Virus record (IMG/VR): IMGVR_UViG_3300045988_056052
Strand: one strand, 5' to 3'
Origin: a virus
Length of the DNA: 40,041 nt
Shown here piece after piece: positions 2,445 through 35,535 of the stretch. How positions within the stretch are numbered: position 1 is the stretch's first letter; each line of letters begins with the position of its first letter. A program made the translations under genes and the position numbers. The notes under the pieces are model-generated. The model was not told the origin of the DNA and did no database searches. It saw only the letters and a list, made by a program, of their open reading frames with translations.

Positions 2445-3161
2445 ATGCAGTTACCAGAAACAGTAGAAGTAAAAGGAATGAAAGTTCTTACGACTCGGCA
2501 AATAGCTGAAGCGTATGGAGTGTCTAAGGACAAGATAATTTACAATTTTAACTATAATAAAGACAGATATGTTCTTGGAAAACACTATATTGAGGTGTTT
2601 GGGGAAGAATTAAGGAGATTGAAAAGGACATGTGAAATTCAAAGCTCCTTCAAATACGCCAAGACATTGTATCTTTGGACAGAGAAAGGTGCATTGCTCC
2701 ATGCCAAATCTTTGAACACGGATAAGGCGTGGGAAGTATATGATTATCTGGTGGATTTTTACTTCCGAGCAAAGGAAGAACCGAAAGAAACAAAGCCTGT
2801 TCCTGTTGATACAGTACCAGTCGTAAGTAGGCAGAAAGATAAGAAGCTTCCACAGATTGACAATCCAATCGGGGTACTTAAGCTGTTGCTTCAGGTAGCA
2901 GAAGATAATGGCATTGGAGTGAGTTCCTACCCGTTCAAGACGTTTGAGAGCGTATTGAAAAACGGAAACATCGGTATCAGAACTGGCGTGACGGTCGAAA
3001 AGGCATGTTATGAACTGGCGTGGGAGCTGTCTCATGCGTTTATCCACTATCGGAATGGGGATTTGATTAAGAGTCCGCTGGCAAAGGATTACAATGATCA
3101 GGCAACACGGTCAGCTGAGTTGATCCTGAAAGTTCTGAATGTAAAAATGAGTCAATTGTAA
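2445..3161 (+). CDS. ORF6N/KilA-N-type DNA-binding domain fused to an ImmA/IrrE-like domain (antirepressor-like)
   Basis: The N-terminus (VLTTRQIAEAYGVSKDKIIYNFNYNKDRYVLGKHYIEV...LYLWTEKGALLHAKSL) looks like ORF6N. The C-terminus GIRTGVTVEKACYELAWELSHAFIH parallels AIRKDMNTVQKACTLAEELGHHH of the ImmA homologue at 21645..22109. Confidence 0.65.
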   Translation: MQLPETVEVKGMKVLTTRQIAEAYGVSKDKIIYNFNYNKDRYVLGKHYIEVFGEELRRLKRTCEIQSSFKYAKTLYLWTEKGALLHAKSLNTDKAWEVYDYLVDFYFRAKEEPKETKPVPVDTVPVVSRQKDKKLPQIDNPIGVLKLLLQVAEDNGIGVSSYPFKTFESVLKNGNIGIRTGVTVEKACYELAWELSHAFIHYRNGDLIKSPLAKDYNDQATRSAELILKVLNVKMSQL

Positions 3162-5382: not shown

Positions 5383-6363
5383 ATGCAGAATAGAAGAATG
5401 AATTTAAGATTGTTTGACACAGATGCAAATATCATTGATCGTACCGGAGCAGAGGCTCTGATTCCAATTCAGGAATCCAATGAGATCATCCAGGGAACAA
5501 TCGCACAGTCAGCTGTACTGTCAAGGGGCCGTAAGCTGGCAAACATGACAAGCAAGCAGTATAAAATGCCGGTACTGGATATGCTGCCGATTGCTTATTT
5601 TGTAAATGGTGATAACGGACAGAAGAAAACTACGAAACAGGCATGGGATAAGAAATTTATCACTGCCGAAGAGATTGCAGTTATTGTTCCGATTCCGGAA
5701 GCAGTCCTGGATGATTCCGAGTACGACATCTGGGGAGAGGTAAAGCCAAGAGTAACAGAGGCGTTTGGAAAGGTTATCGACAGTGCGGTATTATTTGGTG
5801 AAAATAAACCGTCTACATGGAGAGATGATGTGGTTGCAACCGCAACAAAGGCAAATGCTGTTATCACATTAGGAACGGCTGACAGTCTGTATGACAAGAT
5901 CATGGCAGAAGACGGGGTGATTGCACACGTTGAAGACTGTGGATACTTTGTGAACGGCCATATGGCAGATATTTCCATGAGAGCTAAACTCAGAGGTCTG
6001 AAGAATGCAAACGGAGATCCGTTGTTCAAGCAGGATCTGCAGGGCTCTACCCAGTATGCGCTGGATGGATCACCGATGAATTTCCCGAACAATGGTGCAT
6101 TTGATAAGTCAAAGGCGCTTATGATTTCCGGAGATTTCTCACAGCTGGTATATTCCATCAGACAGGATATTACTTTTAAGCTGTTTACGGAAGGTGTTGT
6201 TCAGAATACAGATGGCACAATCGCATACAATCTGATGCAGAACGATATGGTTGCGCTTCGTGCAGTGATGCGTCTTGGATGGGAAATCCCGAACCCGATC
6301 AATTCACTGAAGACAGACAAGACCAAGAGATGTCCGTTTGCAGTTCTGAAATCCGGTGAGTAA
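5383..6363 (+). CDS. Major capsid protein (HK97 fold)
   Basis: 326 aa, strong SD, positioned after the scaffold. The leader MQNRRMNLRLF resembles the scaffold leader. Sequence character is typical of the Phage_capsid family. Confidence 0.85.
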   Translation: MQNRRMNLRLFDTDANIIDRTGAEALIPIQESNEIIQGTIAQSAVLSRGRKLANMTSKQYKMPVLDMLPIAYFVNGDNGQKKTTKQAWDKKFITAEEIAVIVPIPEAVLDDSEYDIWGEVKPRVTEAFGKVIDSAVLFGENKPSTWRDDVVATATKANAVITLGTADSLYDKIMAEDGVIAHVEDCGYFVNGHMADISMRAKLRGLKNANGDPLFKQDLQGSTQYALDGSPMNFPNNGAFDKSKALMISGDFSQLVYSIRQDITFKLFTEGVVQNTDGTIAYNLMQNDMVALRAVMRLGWEIPNPINSLKTDKTKRCPFAVLKSGE

Positions 6364-31160: not shown

Positions 31161-32189
31161 ATGTATATACAAGAAGATGACTTGAAACTAAATGACTGGC
31201 AGTTCTCACAAAGAAAATATCTGCCATATGAAACAAAGCTACGGCTTACAGAAACCCGTATAAGAGAATGGCATTACAACTGGGAAGGGCAAGTGTATTT
31301 AAGCTATTCTGCTGGACTTGATAGCACAGTGCTACTACATATGATCCGAAAAATATTAGGAAATGATGTCCCGGCTGTATTCTCCAATACAGGTTTGGAA
31401 TTTCCGGAAATCGTGAGATTTGCAAGGAAAGCACCGGGAGAGTTTGTAGAGATATATCCGAGAGAAAAGGATGGAAAGAGGATTACATTTAAACAGGTCG
31501 TTGATCAATACGGATTCCCGCTTGTGTCGAAAGAAACGGCATTGAAAATACATAAGTTGCGACACGGGAACTTATCAGATCGGTATAGAAACTATCTGCT
31601 GAACGGGGACGAGCGTGGAAAGTTCGGAGTTTTGGCAAAAAAATGGAAGTTTCTGTTGGACGCAAAATTTGATACATCTGAGAAGTGCTGTCACATTATG
31701 AAGAAGAAACCATTTAAAGAATACGAAAAGCGCACCGGCAGAAAACCATATATCGGCACAACACAGGATGAGGGATTCATGCGAGCGCATCTATACGCAA
31801 GCACAGGATGTAATGTGTATGACGGGAAGAAAATTAAATCACAGCCGTTAGGATTTTGGAACAGACAGGATGTATTAAGATACGCGGTCGAAAATGATGT
31901 GGAAATATGCTCTGTGTACGGAGATATTAAGCAAGATCAGCAAGGCAACTATTATACGACAGGAGAACAACGAACAGGATGTATGTTCTGTGGATTCGGA
32001 GCGCACCTGGAAGAAGAGCCAAACAGATTCCAGAGAATGTCCATAACACATCCGAAATGTTATGAAATCTGCATGAACCTTGAAAACAACGGGGTGAAGT
32101 ATAAAGATGCGTTAGAAACATGCGGAATTGGTACAGAAACATGGGAGCAGATGGGGCAAATGGATATATTTGATTTTTTGGAGGTATAA
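31161..32189 (+). CDS. PAPS-reductase-family PP-loop ATPase (DndC/IbrA-like fold)
   Basis: VYLSYSAGLDSTVLLHMI is a PP-loop (SGGxDS-type). Also EKCCHIMKKKPF and a C-terminal Cys cluster, TGCMFCGFGAH. Confidence 0.75.
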   Translation: MYIQEDDLKLNDWQFSQRKYLPYETKLRLTETRIREWHYNWEGQVYLSYSAGLDSTVLLHMIRKILGNDVPAVFSNTGLEFPEIVRFARKAPGEFVEIYPREKDGKRITFKQVVDQYGFPLVSKETALKIHKLRHGNLSDRYRNYLLNGDERGKFGVLAKKWKFLLDAKFDTSEKCCHIMKKKPFKEYEKRTGRKPYIGTTQDEGFMRAHLYASTGCNVYDGKKIKSQPLGFWNRQDVLRYAVENDVEICSVYGDIKQDQQGNYYTTGEQRTGCMFCGFGAHLEEEPNRFQRMSITHPKCYEICMNLENNGVKYKDALETCGIGTETWEQMGQMDIFDFLEV

Positions 32190-32192
32190 AGA

Positions 32193-32588
32193 TTGCACAT
32201 TGAATTAAAAGAGATAGACAAAGACACATTGAAAGTTGGAGATGTAGTAGGAGTGGCGAGAGAAGTAAACTACGGATGGGTTTCATCATTCCGGCATAAA
32301 CTGATTTTTCCGGCACAAATCACAAGAATCACTCCAAAGCGAACCAAATTCTTTACGGATAAGTTTGGAGAACATGACAAAAGAGAAGTATTTTATGAGT
32401 GTGATAGTGAAGCTGAGAAAGAAACTTTTCTTGCTAAGGCATTTTATGCTATTAAAAACGGAATATTTGAGTTAACCGAATTGAAAAGAAATGATCGCAT
32501 CGGAAGAATCAGCGATGAAGATTTGCCGGAAGTAGCTGAACACATGGAAGCAATGATGAAGATTTTGAAAAAGTACAGAAAGGAATAA
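32193..32588 (+). CDS. Hypothetical protein between the two PP-loop genes (TTG start)
   Basis: 131-aa ORF starting 4 nt after the previous stop. No motif recognised. Confidence 0.5.
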   Translation: MHIELKEIDKDTLKVGDVVGVAREVNYGWVSSFRHKLIFPAQITRITPKRTKFFTDKFGEHDKREVFYECDSEAEKETFLAKAFYAIKNGIFELTELKRNDRIGRISDEDLPEVAEHMEAMMKILKKYRKE

Positions 32589-32740
32589 CGAATCCTCGGT
32601 AAACCGAGGTTGTATCAAGATTAGTATGGTGAATTGGTACATAAAGATTGACGGAGTGGCTGTGCCTAAATAAGCACTTAATAATGCATCCAAGCCGATT
32701 GTTAATCTATCCACGATACATGGATTTGTAGCGTGGTGTT

Positions 32741-33451
32741 ATGAAAGTATGTTGGTTTTCAACAGGAATAAGCAGTTTTGTAGCGTGTTATTTAGCAAAG
32801 GATGTAGACGAGATTATATATACTCATGTACCGGATCAGCATCCTGATTCTTTGAGATTTTTGCACGATTGCGAAAGGATATTGGGTAGAAAAATTACAA
32901 TCTTACAATCTGATAGATTTTCGTCAGTAGAGGATGTGATGAATCTCACTCACACAATGAACACTCCTTTTGGTGCTCCGTGCACAAGATATCTCAAAAA
33001 AGAAGTTAGGAAAAAATGGGAAAGAGAAAATCCTGACCATCACACTTATGTTTGGGGATTTGATGTAAACGAAGCAAAGAGAGCTGAAAACACTTGCAAA
33101 GCATTAAGCGACTACGATCATGAATTCCCACTTATAGAAAATGGACTCACGAAAGAAGAAGCTCACGGCATTGCGAACAAGCTCGGACTTAAAAGACCTA
33201 TTATGTATGACATGGGTTATCCGAATAATAACTGTATCGGCTGCGTTAAGGGCGGTATGGGATACTGGAACAAAATTAGAGTCGATTTTCCAGAAGTATT
33301 TGAACTTAGAGCGAAACAAGAACGTAAGTTAGGACGTAGCTGCATAAATGGTGTATTCCTGGATGAATTAGAACCAAACAGAGGAAACATTAATACAGAA
33401 GTCATGGAAGACTGCACAATAGCGTGTCAGCTTCTGACTTGGAATAAATAA
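32741..33451 (+). CDS. Second, divergent PAPS-reductase / adenine-nucleotide alpha-hydrolase-fold protein
   Basis: MKVCWFSTGISSFVACYL is a degenerate PP-loop (STGISS). LKRPIMYDMGYPNNNCIGCVKGG resembles the LY..GY.SIGC motif of the family. Confidence 0.6.
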   Translation: MKVCWFSTGISSFVACYLAKDVDEIIYTHVPDQHPDSLRFLHDCERILGRKITILQSDRFSSVEDVMNLTHTMNTPFGAPCTRYLKKEVRKKWERENPDHHTYVWGFDVNEAKRAENTCKALSDYDHEFPLIENGLTKEEAHGIANKLGLKRPIMYDMGYPNNNCIGCVKGGMGYWNKIRVDFPEVFELRAKQERKLGRSCINGVFLDELEPNRGNINTEVMEDCTIACQLLTWNK

Positions 33452-33465
33452 CAGTACCTTGACAA

Positions 33466-33494
33466 TTGAATATTGATGGTTGGAGTGGTATAAT
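33466..33494 (+). promoter_or_regulatory. Promoter of the AT-rich moron (TTGAAT-17 nt-TGgTATAAT, extended -10)
   Basis: TTGAAT at 33466-33471, TG at 33486-33487, TATAAT at 33489-33494. Confidence 0.55.
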
Positions 33495-33526: not shown

Positions 33527-33982
33527 ATGGATAGATTGATTGAGTTTTTAACAACAAAAGTTGGTTATGTGTTGACAGTTATATTAGGATTTATTGTGCC
33601 AGGAAATGTTTTGATTTTTGTCTGGAATAGGAATATGTATTTGGAGATTGATATTATAAAATTATTGATTTTATCATTTTCTATTTCATTTGTCGCATTG
33701 ATTCCCAATTTGATAGTTGTTATTGCTATGAATTTTATTAATGGTGTAAATAAAAGCTCAAATAACAAAGAAGAAACAAAATTCAATATATTATATAACA
33801 TTGGATTCTCAGTTGGACTTGTTGTAATTGAAATGATTTTTGTTATATTCATGGCAATATGTACGAAGAATTTTCAACTTAAGACTTATATTATGTATAC
33901 AGGGCTAGCAATAACGGGAATAATAATTATATACAGCGTTGTTATATTACTAAAACAGTTAATAAAGAAAATAAGAAAATAA
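33527..33982 (+). CDS. 4-TM membrane protein, AT-rich moron
   Basis: SD AAGGAG. Four hydrophobic helices. Visibly much more AT-rich than the flanking genes. Confidence 0.7.
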   Translation: MDRLIEFLTTKVGYVLTVILGFIVPGNVLIFVWNRNMYLEIDIIKLLILSFSISFVALIPNLIVVIAMNFINGVNKSSNNKEETKFNILYNIGFSVGLVVIEMIFVIFMAICTKNFQLKTYIMYTGLAITGIIIIYSVVILLKQLIKKIRK

Positions 33983-33988
33983 AATGTT

Positions 33989-34024
33989 TACCAACCATCA
34001 ATATTCGGTGGTTGGTATTTTTTT
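33989..34024 (+). terminator. Rho-independent terminator of the moron
   Basis: Stem taccaacca / tggttggta followed by ttttttt. Confidence 0.7.
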
Positions 34025-35187: not shown

Positions 35188-35535
35188 ATGAAGATGAAAA
35201 TTGTAAAAGGCAAAGAACAGGAATATAAAGACTGGTATGAAAAAAACAGTGATCCATACGGTAGAGCGTGTTTTACATATGCTGAAAGATGGGCCGGAAT
35301 GATGGAAGAGAAGATAGAAGCATCAGAAGAAGACGAAACGAAAGTTATTGTTGATAATGCAAAGCAGCTGAGCTATGAAGCGGATAAAGAGAGAATCACA
35401 GGATTTATGTACGGGGCAGCTGTCAGTATTCTTTCTAAATACTGGGAATACGGAGAATGTCTAAGAAAATGGCACAACAAAGATTATGGATATGACGGTG
35501 ACGGCGTTGCAAATCCGGCGGTTATAACTGTTTAG
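35188..35535 (+). CDS. Hypothetical protein
   Basis: 115-aa ORF with SD AAGGAG (ATG 35188 or 35194). Confidence 0.55.
   Translation: MKMKIVKGKEQEYKDWYEKNSDPYGRACFTYAERWAGMMEEKIEASEEDETKVIVDNAKQLSYEADKERITGFMYGAAVSILSKYWEYGECLRKWHNKDYGYDGDGVANPAVITV

Follow-up and report, generated by a model that had tools for sequence, protein, structure and literature searches.

Two PAPS-reductase-fold genes of a temperate phage assort independently, and one of them lies in a mobile cassette with a start-proximal RNA hairpin

The DNA analyzed here, called the window below, is the whole 40,041-nucleotide stretch of the viral record IMGVR_UViG_3300045988_056052 of IMG/VR, which is apparently the complete genome of a temperate siphovirus-type phage. 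Three open reading frames (ORFs) lie between positions 31161 and 33451, and the outer two, ORF1 and ORF3, encode proteins of the superfamily of 3'-phosphoadenosine 5'-phosphosulfate (PAPS) reductases and PP-loop enzymes. A sequence-only reading of this DNA had proposed that the three genes form a nucleic-acid modification module. We found that ORF1 and ORF3 are separately acquired stand-alone accessory genes and no module, and that ORF3 belongs to a mobile cassette in which a conserved hairpin precedes the start codon. The features at the locus are the following, where APS is adenosine 5'-phosphosulfate, aa are amino acids and nt are nucleotides.

31161-32189, plus strand: ORF1, 342 aa; PAPS_reduct-domain protein, predicted ATP pyrophosphatase with an iron-sulfur (Fe-S) cluster
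32193-32588, plus strand: ORF2, 131 aa; TTG start 3 nt past the ORF1 stop; function not assigned
32589-32740, plus strand: ORF3 leader, 152 nt, with four predicted hairpins
32594-32609, plus strand: terminator-like hairpin CCTCGG-TAAA-CCGAGG, the first hairpin of the ORF3 leader
32711-32736, plus strand: start-proximal stem-loop CCACG.ATACA[TGGATT]TGTA.G.CGTGG, the last 26 nt of the hairpin-bearing leader
32741-33451, plus strand: ORF3, 236 aa; PAPS/APS-reductase-fold protein of the PptA family
32589-33490, plus strand: mobile ORF3 cassette of leader, gene and about 40 nt more, delimited by sliding identity profiles

The three ORFs are present at the coordinates and lengths given by the sequence-only reading. 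Their joint occurrence was followed in 112 viral loci, of which 80 were fetched with ORF3 and 32 with ORF1 as the seed; all ORFs were scored with family hidden Markov models, and partners were counted within 6 kb. ORF3 stood alone in 57 of its 80 loci and was accompanied by ORF2 in 14 and by ORF1 in 9, and all three genes were never seen together. The ORF1-seeded loci showed ORF1 alone in 10, with ORF2 in 15, with ORF3 in 6 and the complete trio in a single locus (L097), which makes one trio in 112 related loci. Another 60 loci were seeded on ORF2, with PAPS-reductase-like genes sought within 5 kb; 36 had no such gene, and 24 had one, from three clades. The order and spacing also varied, as ORF2 was found on either side of ORF3 and from 14 nt to 2.5 kb after ORF1. 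No fixed neighbor was found for ORF3, and the commonest recognizable ones were C5 and N6/N4 DNA methylases in variable positions. The genes thus assort independently across related loci, and the proposed three-gene module did not stand. Nor is the pair unusual: both genes are ordinary members of a phage gene superfamily that is very common, and each is mobile independently of the other.

ORF2 had no match in Pfam, PHROG, NCBIfam or PADLOC, and its similarity to SH3-like entries of the PDB was weak (E = 0.1). Its AlphaFold model, with a pLDDT of 56, shows a small N-terminal beta domain and two long helices. All of its 932 homologs came from phages of gut Clostridia. Because 36 of the 60 ORF2 loci lack a reductase-like gene and the rest have one from any of three clades, ORF2 is a facultative passenger of the hot-spot, at most a facultative associate and no obligate partner. 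In one related locus (L021, about 5945-6003), the first 18 or so codons of an ORF2-like gene (MKIELKEIDKDTLKVGD) run straight into the start of ORF3, which looks like a deletion that took the remainder of ORF2 and the entire leader.

The gap before ORF3 measures 152 nt (32589-32740). The earlier suggestion that a 150-bp spacer points to separate acquisition was right for ORF3 itself, but the gap is no junction scar, as the 152 nt are a conserved cassette leader. The leader lies directly upstream of ORF3 in 55 of the 112 loci, irrespective of the preceding gene. Homology to other phages (L017, L018, L019, L020, L003 and L097) starts sharply at about 32590 and stops at about 33490, and the DNA beyond either end is unrelated; therefore, the leader and ORF3 make up a cassette of about 0.9 kb, and these boundaries are firmly established. 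The leader was 100% identical where the ORF3 protein was 83-85% identical. The interior of the cassette is mosaic, as its ends are 92-100% and its middle 52-76% identical. Selection alone was ruled out as the reason for the perfect leader identity, since the identity in the 5' coding region next to it is likewise 94-100%; recent mosaic recombination accounts for it in part. The leader had a fold z-score of -2.1, and no Rfam family matched the leader or the hairpin. A consensus scan of the leader detected no promoter, and the site counts in the region were not above those of shuffled sequences.

Two further elements were observed in the leader. In many loci, a second short conserved motif precedes the hairpin by 12-35 nt, and it recurs where the leaders are otherwise dissimilar. 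It reads AGCATGGGAAGC in L018, L022, L057 and L080, TAGCAA in L037, L040, L060 and L065, and ATGCATCCAAGCC at about 32684-32700 of the window. It may serve as a promoter element or mark a processing site. The other is a mini-ORF of 15 codons (MVNWYIKIDGVAVPK) at 32626-32673 on the plus strand, without an obvious Shine-Dalgarno (SD) sequence.

The start-proximal stem-loop is unique in the window. The sole SD-like sequence (GGTG) is in its 3' arm, which stops 4 nt short of the ATG, and the hairpin appears to gate the translation of ORF3. When the upstream regions were folded independently, the same architecture was obtained with differing arms. With a hairpin defined by a free energy of -10 kcal/mol or lower and a 3' arm no more than 6 nt from the start codon, 22 of 34 distinct ORF3 upstream regions were positive (65%), compared with 42 of 1,336 control genes of the same loci (3.1%; Fisher test, 4e-23). 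RNAalifold predicted no pairs on a MAFFT alignment of the leaders; MAFFT had misregistered the divergent arms, so alignment-free folding and an alignment trimmed to the hairpin were used instead. In the trimmed alignment, 91.9% of the cells were paired and four pairs showed double changes, while slid registers paired 27-54%. The covariation score was 0.40 against 0.20 +/- 0.03 in shuffles, none of the 500 shuffles being as high, for sequences that are related and an alignment that is trimmed to the hairpin. More than 20 stem variants were found. In an independent set with one genome per species, about half of the Clostridia loci had the hairpin, and many further compensatory variants came to light; in this set the hairpin was absent from the ORF3 homologs of Bacteroides, Bacillus and proteobacteria. 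The ORF3 genes without the hairpin have a canonical SD sequence of the AGGAGG type. These compensatory changes, which go beyond the controls, indicate that the hairpin is a conserved RNA structure, and it is a putative cis-regulatory element.

We searched 1.3 Mb for the motif of the 3' arm with a start codon and an ORF of 80 aa or more behind it; there were 62 occurrences, and each of the 62 ORFs was PAPS-reductase-like. Sixty were of the ORF3 type. The remaining two had SGGKDS PP-loops and came from other clades, one being DndC/BrxP-like. The hairpin motif is also carried by relatives of the other clade, and the window's own ORF1 is without a hairpin. The loop contains GGA in about half of the variants, and the consensus of CsrA sites includes GGA in a loop. 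Like other 5' hairpins that occlude an SD sequence (translational operators, RNA thermometers and CsrA sites), the ORF3 stem-loop stands about 4 nt before the start with the SD-like GGTG in its 3' arm; it differs from them in being specific to PAPS-reductase-like genes of three clades in phages of Clostridia. Candidate roles are a translational operator (possibly autoregulatory or bound by CsrA), a 5' stabilizer and a cassette boundary. It is a long shot that the hairpin is an operator bound by the PAPS-reductase-like enzymes themselves and mimics their nucleic-acid substrate. If it were so, the phage "PAPS reductases" would be single-protein enzymes that recognize a stem-loop or a site containing CCA/TGG in DNA or RNA, this site would be thiolated or otherwise modified, and the hairpin would be a direct handle on the long-sought substrate. 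Two C5 DNA methylase genes near ORF3 homologs (L034:4497-5807 and L064:6777-7838) also have strong start-proximal hairpins, of -15.1 and -14.1 kcal/mol and of unrelated sequence, which hints that occluded starts may be common for the DNA-modification genes of this hot-spot.

Both outer proteins are firmly placed by fold and family in the PAPS-reductase/PP-loop superfamily, as had been proposed, by profile matches and, for ORF3, by matches of the predicted model. ORF1 matched the Pfam family PF01507 (PAPS_reduct) with 3.3e-19 and 70 bits over a cut-off of 22.5, and phrog_424 with 1.6e-48. Among the PADLOC profiles, which have no curated cut-off, it matched BrxP (3.3e-13) and, in a partial alignment, SspD (4.6e-6). 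Its scores of 27-44 bits against the NCBIfam cysH/CysD models stand against cut-offs of 154-746 bits. Neither ORF1 nor ORF3 matched DndC in PADLOC at E <= 0.01 or in NCBIfam, while a related phage protein from L030 is recognized as DndC-similar by the same PADLOC library. The motifs quoted for ORF1 (SYSAGLDST, KCCH and GCMFCGFG) are present. Its PP-loop S50-A-G52-L-D54-S55 corresponds to the family consensus SGGLDS, and S, G, D and S are invariant in 26 homologs, as are the cysteines C176-C177, C217, C274-x-x-C277 and C304. The CysH-like "ETCGIG" of ORF1 is not kept in its family. An intact PP-loop signature marks an ATP pyrophosphatase that adenylates its substrate, and APS reductase and the DndC-type proteins have CC...CxxC as their Fe-S pattern. 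Stand-alone genes of the ORF1 type were found in phages of Clostridium perfringens, C. difficile, Ruminococcus, Enterobacter and Vibrio.

ORF3 matched no Pfam or NCBIfam family. It matched phrog_424 (7.5e-39) and the SspD profile of PADLOC (1.3e-9), where residues 11-196 were aligned with positions 12-201 of 277. The best relation was to PptA, chain C of PDB entry 21fy, with E = 8.5e-45 for the single sequence and 7.6e-58 for the profile, 37.9% identity, and residues 3-230 of 236 aligned with PptA residues 29-262. Other members of the PptA family (P0379, P0396, P0420, P0442 and P0463) pass PF01507, unlike ORF3 itself. The AlphaFold model of ORF3 (pLDDT 84, pTM 0.80) matched CysH and APS reductases at a probability of 1.0 with template modeling (TM) scores of 0.5-0.6, and phage "PAPS reductases" with TM scores up to 0.78; the fold library used was dated 8 April 2026, and the 21fy entry is newer. 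BLASTP and profile-profile comparison (hhalign) of ORF1 with ORF3 gave nothing significant, which agreed with the earlier view of a divergent pair; therefore, the two are not recent duplicates, and their kinship is visible solely through broad family profiles and the fold.

The motifs quoted for ORF3, WFSTGISS and MYDMGYPNNNCIGC, are also present, the latter having been given one N short. In the PP-loop S7-T-G9-I-S11-S12, the residues S, G and S are kept, and the Asp is absent throughout the family of 98 diverse members, with a Pro there in PptA. The motif conservation in each family thus confirmed that the PP-loop is genuine in ORF1 and degenerate in ORF3. Conserved among the 98 members are S7, G9, S12, D36, R39, C81, K86, R114, N164, C165, G167, C168 and K170. 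The cysteines C81, C165 and C168 are conserved at 98-100% (C81 and C168 at 100%), the last two within the motif N164-C165-x-G-C168-x-K170, and C225/C229 at about 90%. The latter lie on a flexible C-terminal tail of low pLDDT, E-D-C225-T-I-A-C229, itself about 90% conserved, which resembles the catalytic Cys motif ECG[LI]H at the C-terminus of CysH/APS reductases without identity. Several members of the family (P0379, P0396, P0400 and P0477) carry LAGLIDADG inteins at the motif NNNC|xGC, a position that marks it as a critical site. One C5 DNA methylase adjoining a PptA-family gene (L077:362-2950) has an intein too (Hint and LAGLIDADG).

The ORF3 family comprises 1,533 clusters at 50% identity, 800 of them with E <= 1e-10, and most members are stand-alone proteins of 230-270 aa. 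Stand-alone genes of this type occur in phages of Vibrio, Pseudoalteromonas, Pseudomonas, Xanthomonas, Rhizobium, Synechococcus and Bacillus and in many Mycobacterium phages. PptA is 100% identical to a "hypothetical protein" (QGH73774.1) of the T7-like Vibrio harveyi phage vB_VhaP_VH-5, whose gene comes after the RNA polymerase gene in a genome without tRNA. Our literature search turned up no publication behind PDB 21fy and no reported function of PptA. The family member P0420 is fused to a D12 N6-adenine DNA methylase (PF02086, 2.5e-38).

With regard to the surroundings, the genes for portal, capsid and tail are located at 0-17 kb, followed by the endolysin and then by a minus-strand integrase and repressor region. 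RecE/RecT, RusA and the replisome organizer come next, and an accessory block at 29-37 kb precedes the late regulator, the tRNA with anticodon CAT and the terminase. ORF1 to ORF3 are part of a variable region of the "nin-like" kind, which the replication genes border on one side and the late regulator on the other. The closest relatives have Lachnospiraceae hosts, with an ORF3 identity of 94% in Mediterraneibacter and 84% in Dorea, and we regard the phage itself as one of gut Lachnospiraceae. Two more features of this region matter here.

35188-35535, plus strand: homolog of Tad4, a Type I Thoeris inhibitor, Pfam PF25186
37931-38005, plus strand: tRNA with anticodon CAT, detected by ARAGORN and Rfam

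The Tad4 homolog is full length (PF25186, E = 4.6e-34, 117.5 bits over a cut-off of 25) and lies 1.7 kb downstream of ORF3. Because of this homolog, the region of ORF1 to ORF3 can be read as an anti-defense/accessory hot-spot. The absence of a ParB, methyltransferase, TGT/DpdA or Dnd partner, which had been stated earlier, holds for the scanned ORFs (most window ORFs of at least 90 aa). Among them, no match was found to the SspB nickase, the SspC ATPase, DndD, DndE or DndA/IscS, or to any P-loop nucleoside triphosphatase (NTPase) of the DndD/SspC type.

Some other genes of the window were also noted. The small membrane-protein gene after ORF3 (33527-33982) has a sigma-70-like promoter at 33466-33494 on the plus strand (TTGAAT-17-TATAAT with TG) and, on its far side, a strong terminator-like hairpin at 33989-34017 on the same strand, which is a moron-like arrangement. 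At 2445-3161 on the plus strand, a gene for a 238-aa protein with an ORF6N domain (PF10543, 4.4e-18) is located between the minor capsid gene and the later head genes. The ORF6N domain is typical of antirepressor-like proteins, and the gene looks like a moron-like insertion in the structural module.

Several known systems can be compared with ORF1 and ORF3. PptA of phage VH-5 shares with ORF3 the S-x-G-x-x-S loop, C81, K86, NNNCxGCxKGG, the C-terminal E/D-C-x-x-x-C and the state of a stand-alone gene, whereas it comes from a lytic T7-like vibriophage with the gene after that of the RNA polymerase, and the leader hairpin was not noted there. SspD, DndC and BrxP, which are DNA phosphorothioation subunits, belong to the same superfamily; the alignment of ORF3 extends over most of the SspD profile, and ORF1 matches BrxP and SspD and shares the PP-loop, the CC dyad and the CxxC. 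However, ORF1 and ORF3 have no DndC match, the window showed none of the partners DndA/D/E, SspB/C or BrxC/Z/L, and ORF3 lacks the PP-loop Asp. The CysH and APS reductases are the best structural matches of ORF3 and agree with it in the degenerate PP-loop (as in CysH), the Fe-S-type cysteine pattern and the C-terminal Cys tail (as in APS reductase), but the scores are far under the curated cut-offs, the cys operon context is missing and ORF1 has the PP-loop of an ATP pyrophosphatase. The protein p0018 of Vibrio crassostreae phages (10.1101/2021.05.05.442762) likewise has a PAPS-reductase domain, is encoded in a variable region and is linked genetically to the escape from Dnd. It is likened to our proteins by the architecture of the family member P0420 and not by sequence, and ORF1 and ORF3 are unfused.

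We infer from the Dam fusion, the SspD/BrxP similarity and the published anti-Dnd genetics that ORF1 and ORF3 have a DNA-directed anti-restriction role, either autonomous or with borrowed host partners, and we give this reading about an even chance. Each protein would act on DNA, or on the host DNA-phosphorothioation machinery, and shield the phage genome from restriction. Because its PP-loop is intact and the CC/CxxC cysteines are present, ORF1 would most likely adenylate the target with ATP and, in the way proposed for DndC and SspD, pass sulfur on by means of a persulfide or Fe-S centre. ORF3, with three invariant cysteines, an APS-reductase-like Lys, a Cys-bearing C-terminal tail and the PP-loop Asp missing, probably binds an adenine nucleotide without the classical alpha-beta cleavage of ATP and would use thiol/Fe-S chemistry. 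Either protein would have to act alone or borrow partners from the host, such as IscS or the Dnd/Ssp ATPases, as the phage is without an NTPase of the DndD/SspC/BrxC type. The expression of ORF3 would be gated by the hairpin over its ribosome-binding sequence.

This anti-restriction role agreed with the fusion in P0420, which has the same architecture as p0018, with the inteins at NNNC|xGC, with the orphan C5 and N6/N4 methylases that adjoin the genes in relatives and with Tad4. Genes of either reductase type stand alone in many phages that are unrelated, the T7-like Vibrio phage VH-5 among them. Piel et al. (2022; preprint 10.1101/2021.05.05.442762) reported that the PAPS-reductase::Dam fusion p0018, together with a neighbor gene, let Vibrio phages escape the host Dnd system. 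A 2026 survey found that phage PAPS reductases cluster in anti-defense hot-spots and also cites this Vibrio gene, and published data place phosphorothioate (PT) systems in gut Bacillota. It was therefore an overstatement that known pathways do not explain the pair, since stand-alone phage PAPS-reductase-like genes are very common and already annotated and have a genetic anti-Dnd precedent. Of the DNA or tRNA modification held plausible by the sequence-only reading, DNA modification or anti-restriction is the best reading, and the tRNA part is given up.

Several points weigh against this anti-restriction role. All four known PT systems need a PAPS-reductase-domain protein and a P-loop NTPase, the latter being what the window lacks, and gut isolates without the reductase-NTPase pair had no PT. 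ORF1 and ORF3 miss the DndC profiles that a related phage protein matches. The Vibrio experiment (10.1101/2021.05.05.442762) moved two genes together, with the reductase fused to Dam, and so did not isolate the share of the domain itself. The literature search yielded no function for PptA, and the fold and cysteine pattern of ORF3 are also compatible with a true sulfonucleotide reductase.

Other explanations were weighed against the same evidence. The proteins might mimic DndC/SspD and titrate or poison the PT-modification or PT-sensing restriction complexes of the host, or drain a sulfur or nucleotide donor, with the phage DNA left unmodified. The window has no NTPase partner for autonomous PT synthesis, the catalytic PP-loop Asp is lost throughout the ORF3 family, ORF3 aligned almost end to end with the SspD profile, and the anti-Dnd phenotype in Vibrio fits such a decoy equally. 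We nevertheless regard it as unlikely, as the Cys, Lys and Arg strictly conserved among the 98 members and the inteins at the CxxC motif argue for a working active site, and the active-type Dam methylase in the fusion points to the DNA of the phage itself as the target. It is quite improbable that one or both genes are auxiliary metabolic genes for true CysH-type PAPS/APS reductases that boost host sulfate assimilation. Such genes are present in small lytic T7-like phages, no genes of the cys pathway are found nearby, the neighbors are methylase and anti-defense genes, and relatives have the Dam fusion. The closest solved folds are indeed the CysH and APS reductases, ORF3 keeps an APS-reductase-like C(x4)K, CxxC and C-terminal E/D-C on a flexible tail, and the public annotation and a 2026 study of Bifidobacterium prophages lean to the sulfur-metabolism reading; but ORF1 stays at 27-44 bits where the NCBIfam cysH/CysD cut-offs are 154-746, ORF3 has no match there, and ORF1 has both an intact PP-loop of the ATP-pyrophosphatase type and an "ETCGIG" that its family does not conserve.

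A co-operating module is very unlikely; in it, a nucleic-acid target would be adenylated by ORF1, with ORF3 as the supplier or reducer of sulfur and ORF2 as an adaptor. A complete PP-loop in one protein and a degenerate one in the other would suit a division of labor, reductase-like genes are sometimes paired (ORF1 with ORF3 in L100/L101, and a third clade with ORF3 in tandem in L056), and ORF2 stands beside a reductase-like gene of three clades in 24 of its 60 loci. The other 36 are without such a gene, however, the trio was seen once in 112 loci, 57 of 80 ORF3-seeded and 10 of 32 ORF1-seeded loci had no partner within 6 kb, ORF3 has its own cassette with a terminator-like hairpin and a leader, and T7-like phages and many others carry a PptA-type gene on its own. 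The least likely of all is RNA modification, with the phage tRNA(CAT) or tRNAs of the host as substrates of a TilS-, TtcA- or ThiI-like activity. This idea goes back to the suggestion that the phage tRNA(CAT) would need TilS-like lysidinylation, and it was not supported: a tRNA-CAT was found within 6 kb in none of the 80 ORF3-seeded and in 2 of the 32 ORF1-seeded loci, both from close relatives of this phage, and the PptA-encoding Vibrio phage VH-5 has no tRNA. Many tRNA thiolases and TilS are PP-loop enzymes, and NcsA and TilS are among the weaker fold matches of ORF3 (root-mean-square deviation about 12), but neither tRNA-binding domains nor matches to the TilS/TtcA families were found. The tRNA(CAT) is not an initiator, as G1-C72 is present and the three G-C pairs of the anticodon stem are missing. 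Its pairs C4-G69, C5-G68 and C29-G41 resemble tRNA-Ile2 determinants, and by the rules for E. coli the tRNA looks like a lysidine-dependent tRNA-Ile2 rather than a tRNA-Met, one that the host TilS would serve. AUA makes up 17% of the Ile codons in 18 phage genes. As far as is known, all bacteria have a TilS of their own, and a phage does not need to bring one. A functional link of the tRNA(CAT) to ORF1 or ORF3 is not supported.

The "PAPS reductase/cysH" genes of phages are among the auxiliary genes most often reported in gut and marine viromes and are routinely taken as sulfur metabolism. Here, such genes behave like mobile anti-defense cassettes, and annotations of sulfur metabolism need caution because of the independent assortment, the methylase and Thoeris-inhibitor neighbors and the Dam fusion in relatives. 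The new points of most use are the link to PptA, the Dam fusion, the anti-defense context and the leader hairpin that is specific to reductase-like genes. The solved representative PptA lets function be transferred to the ORF3 family in due course. The leader hairpin, which is common to three reductase clades, is a concrete candidate for a regulatory element and could reveal the timing of expression and possibly the target recognized.

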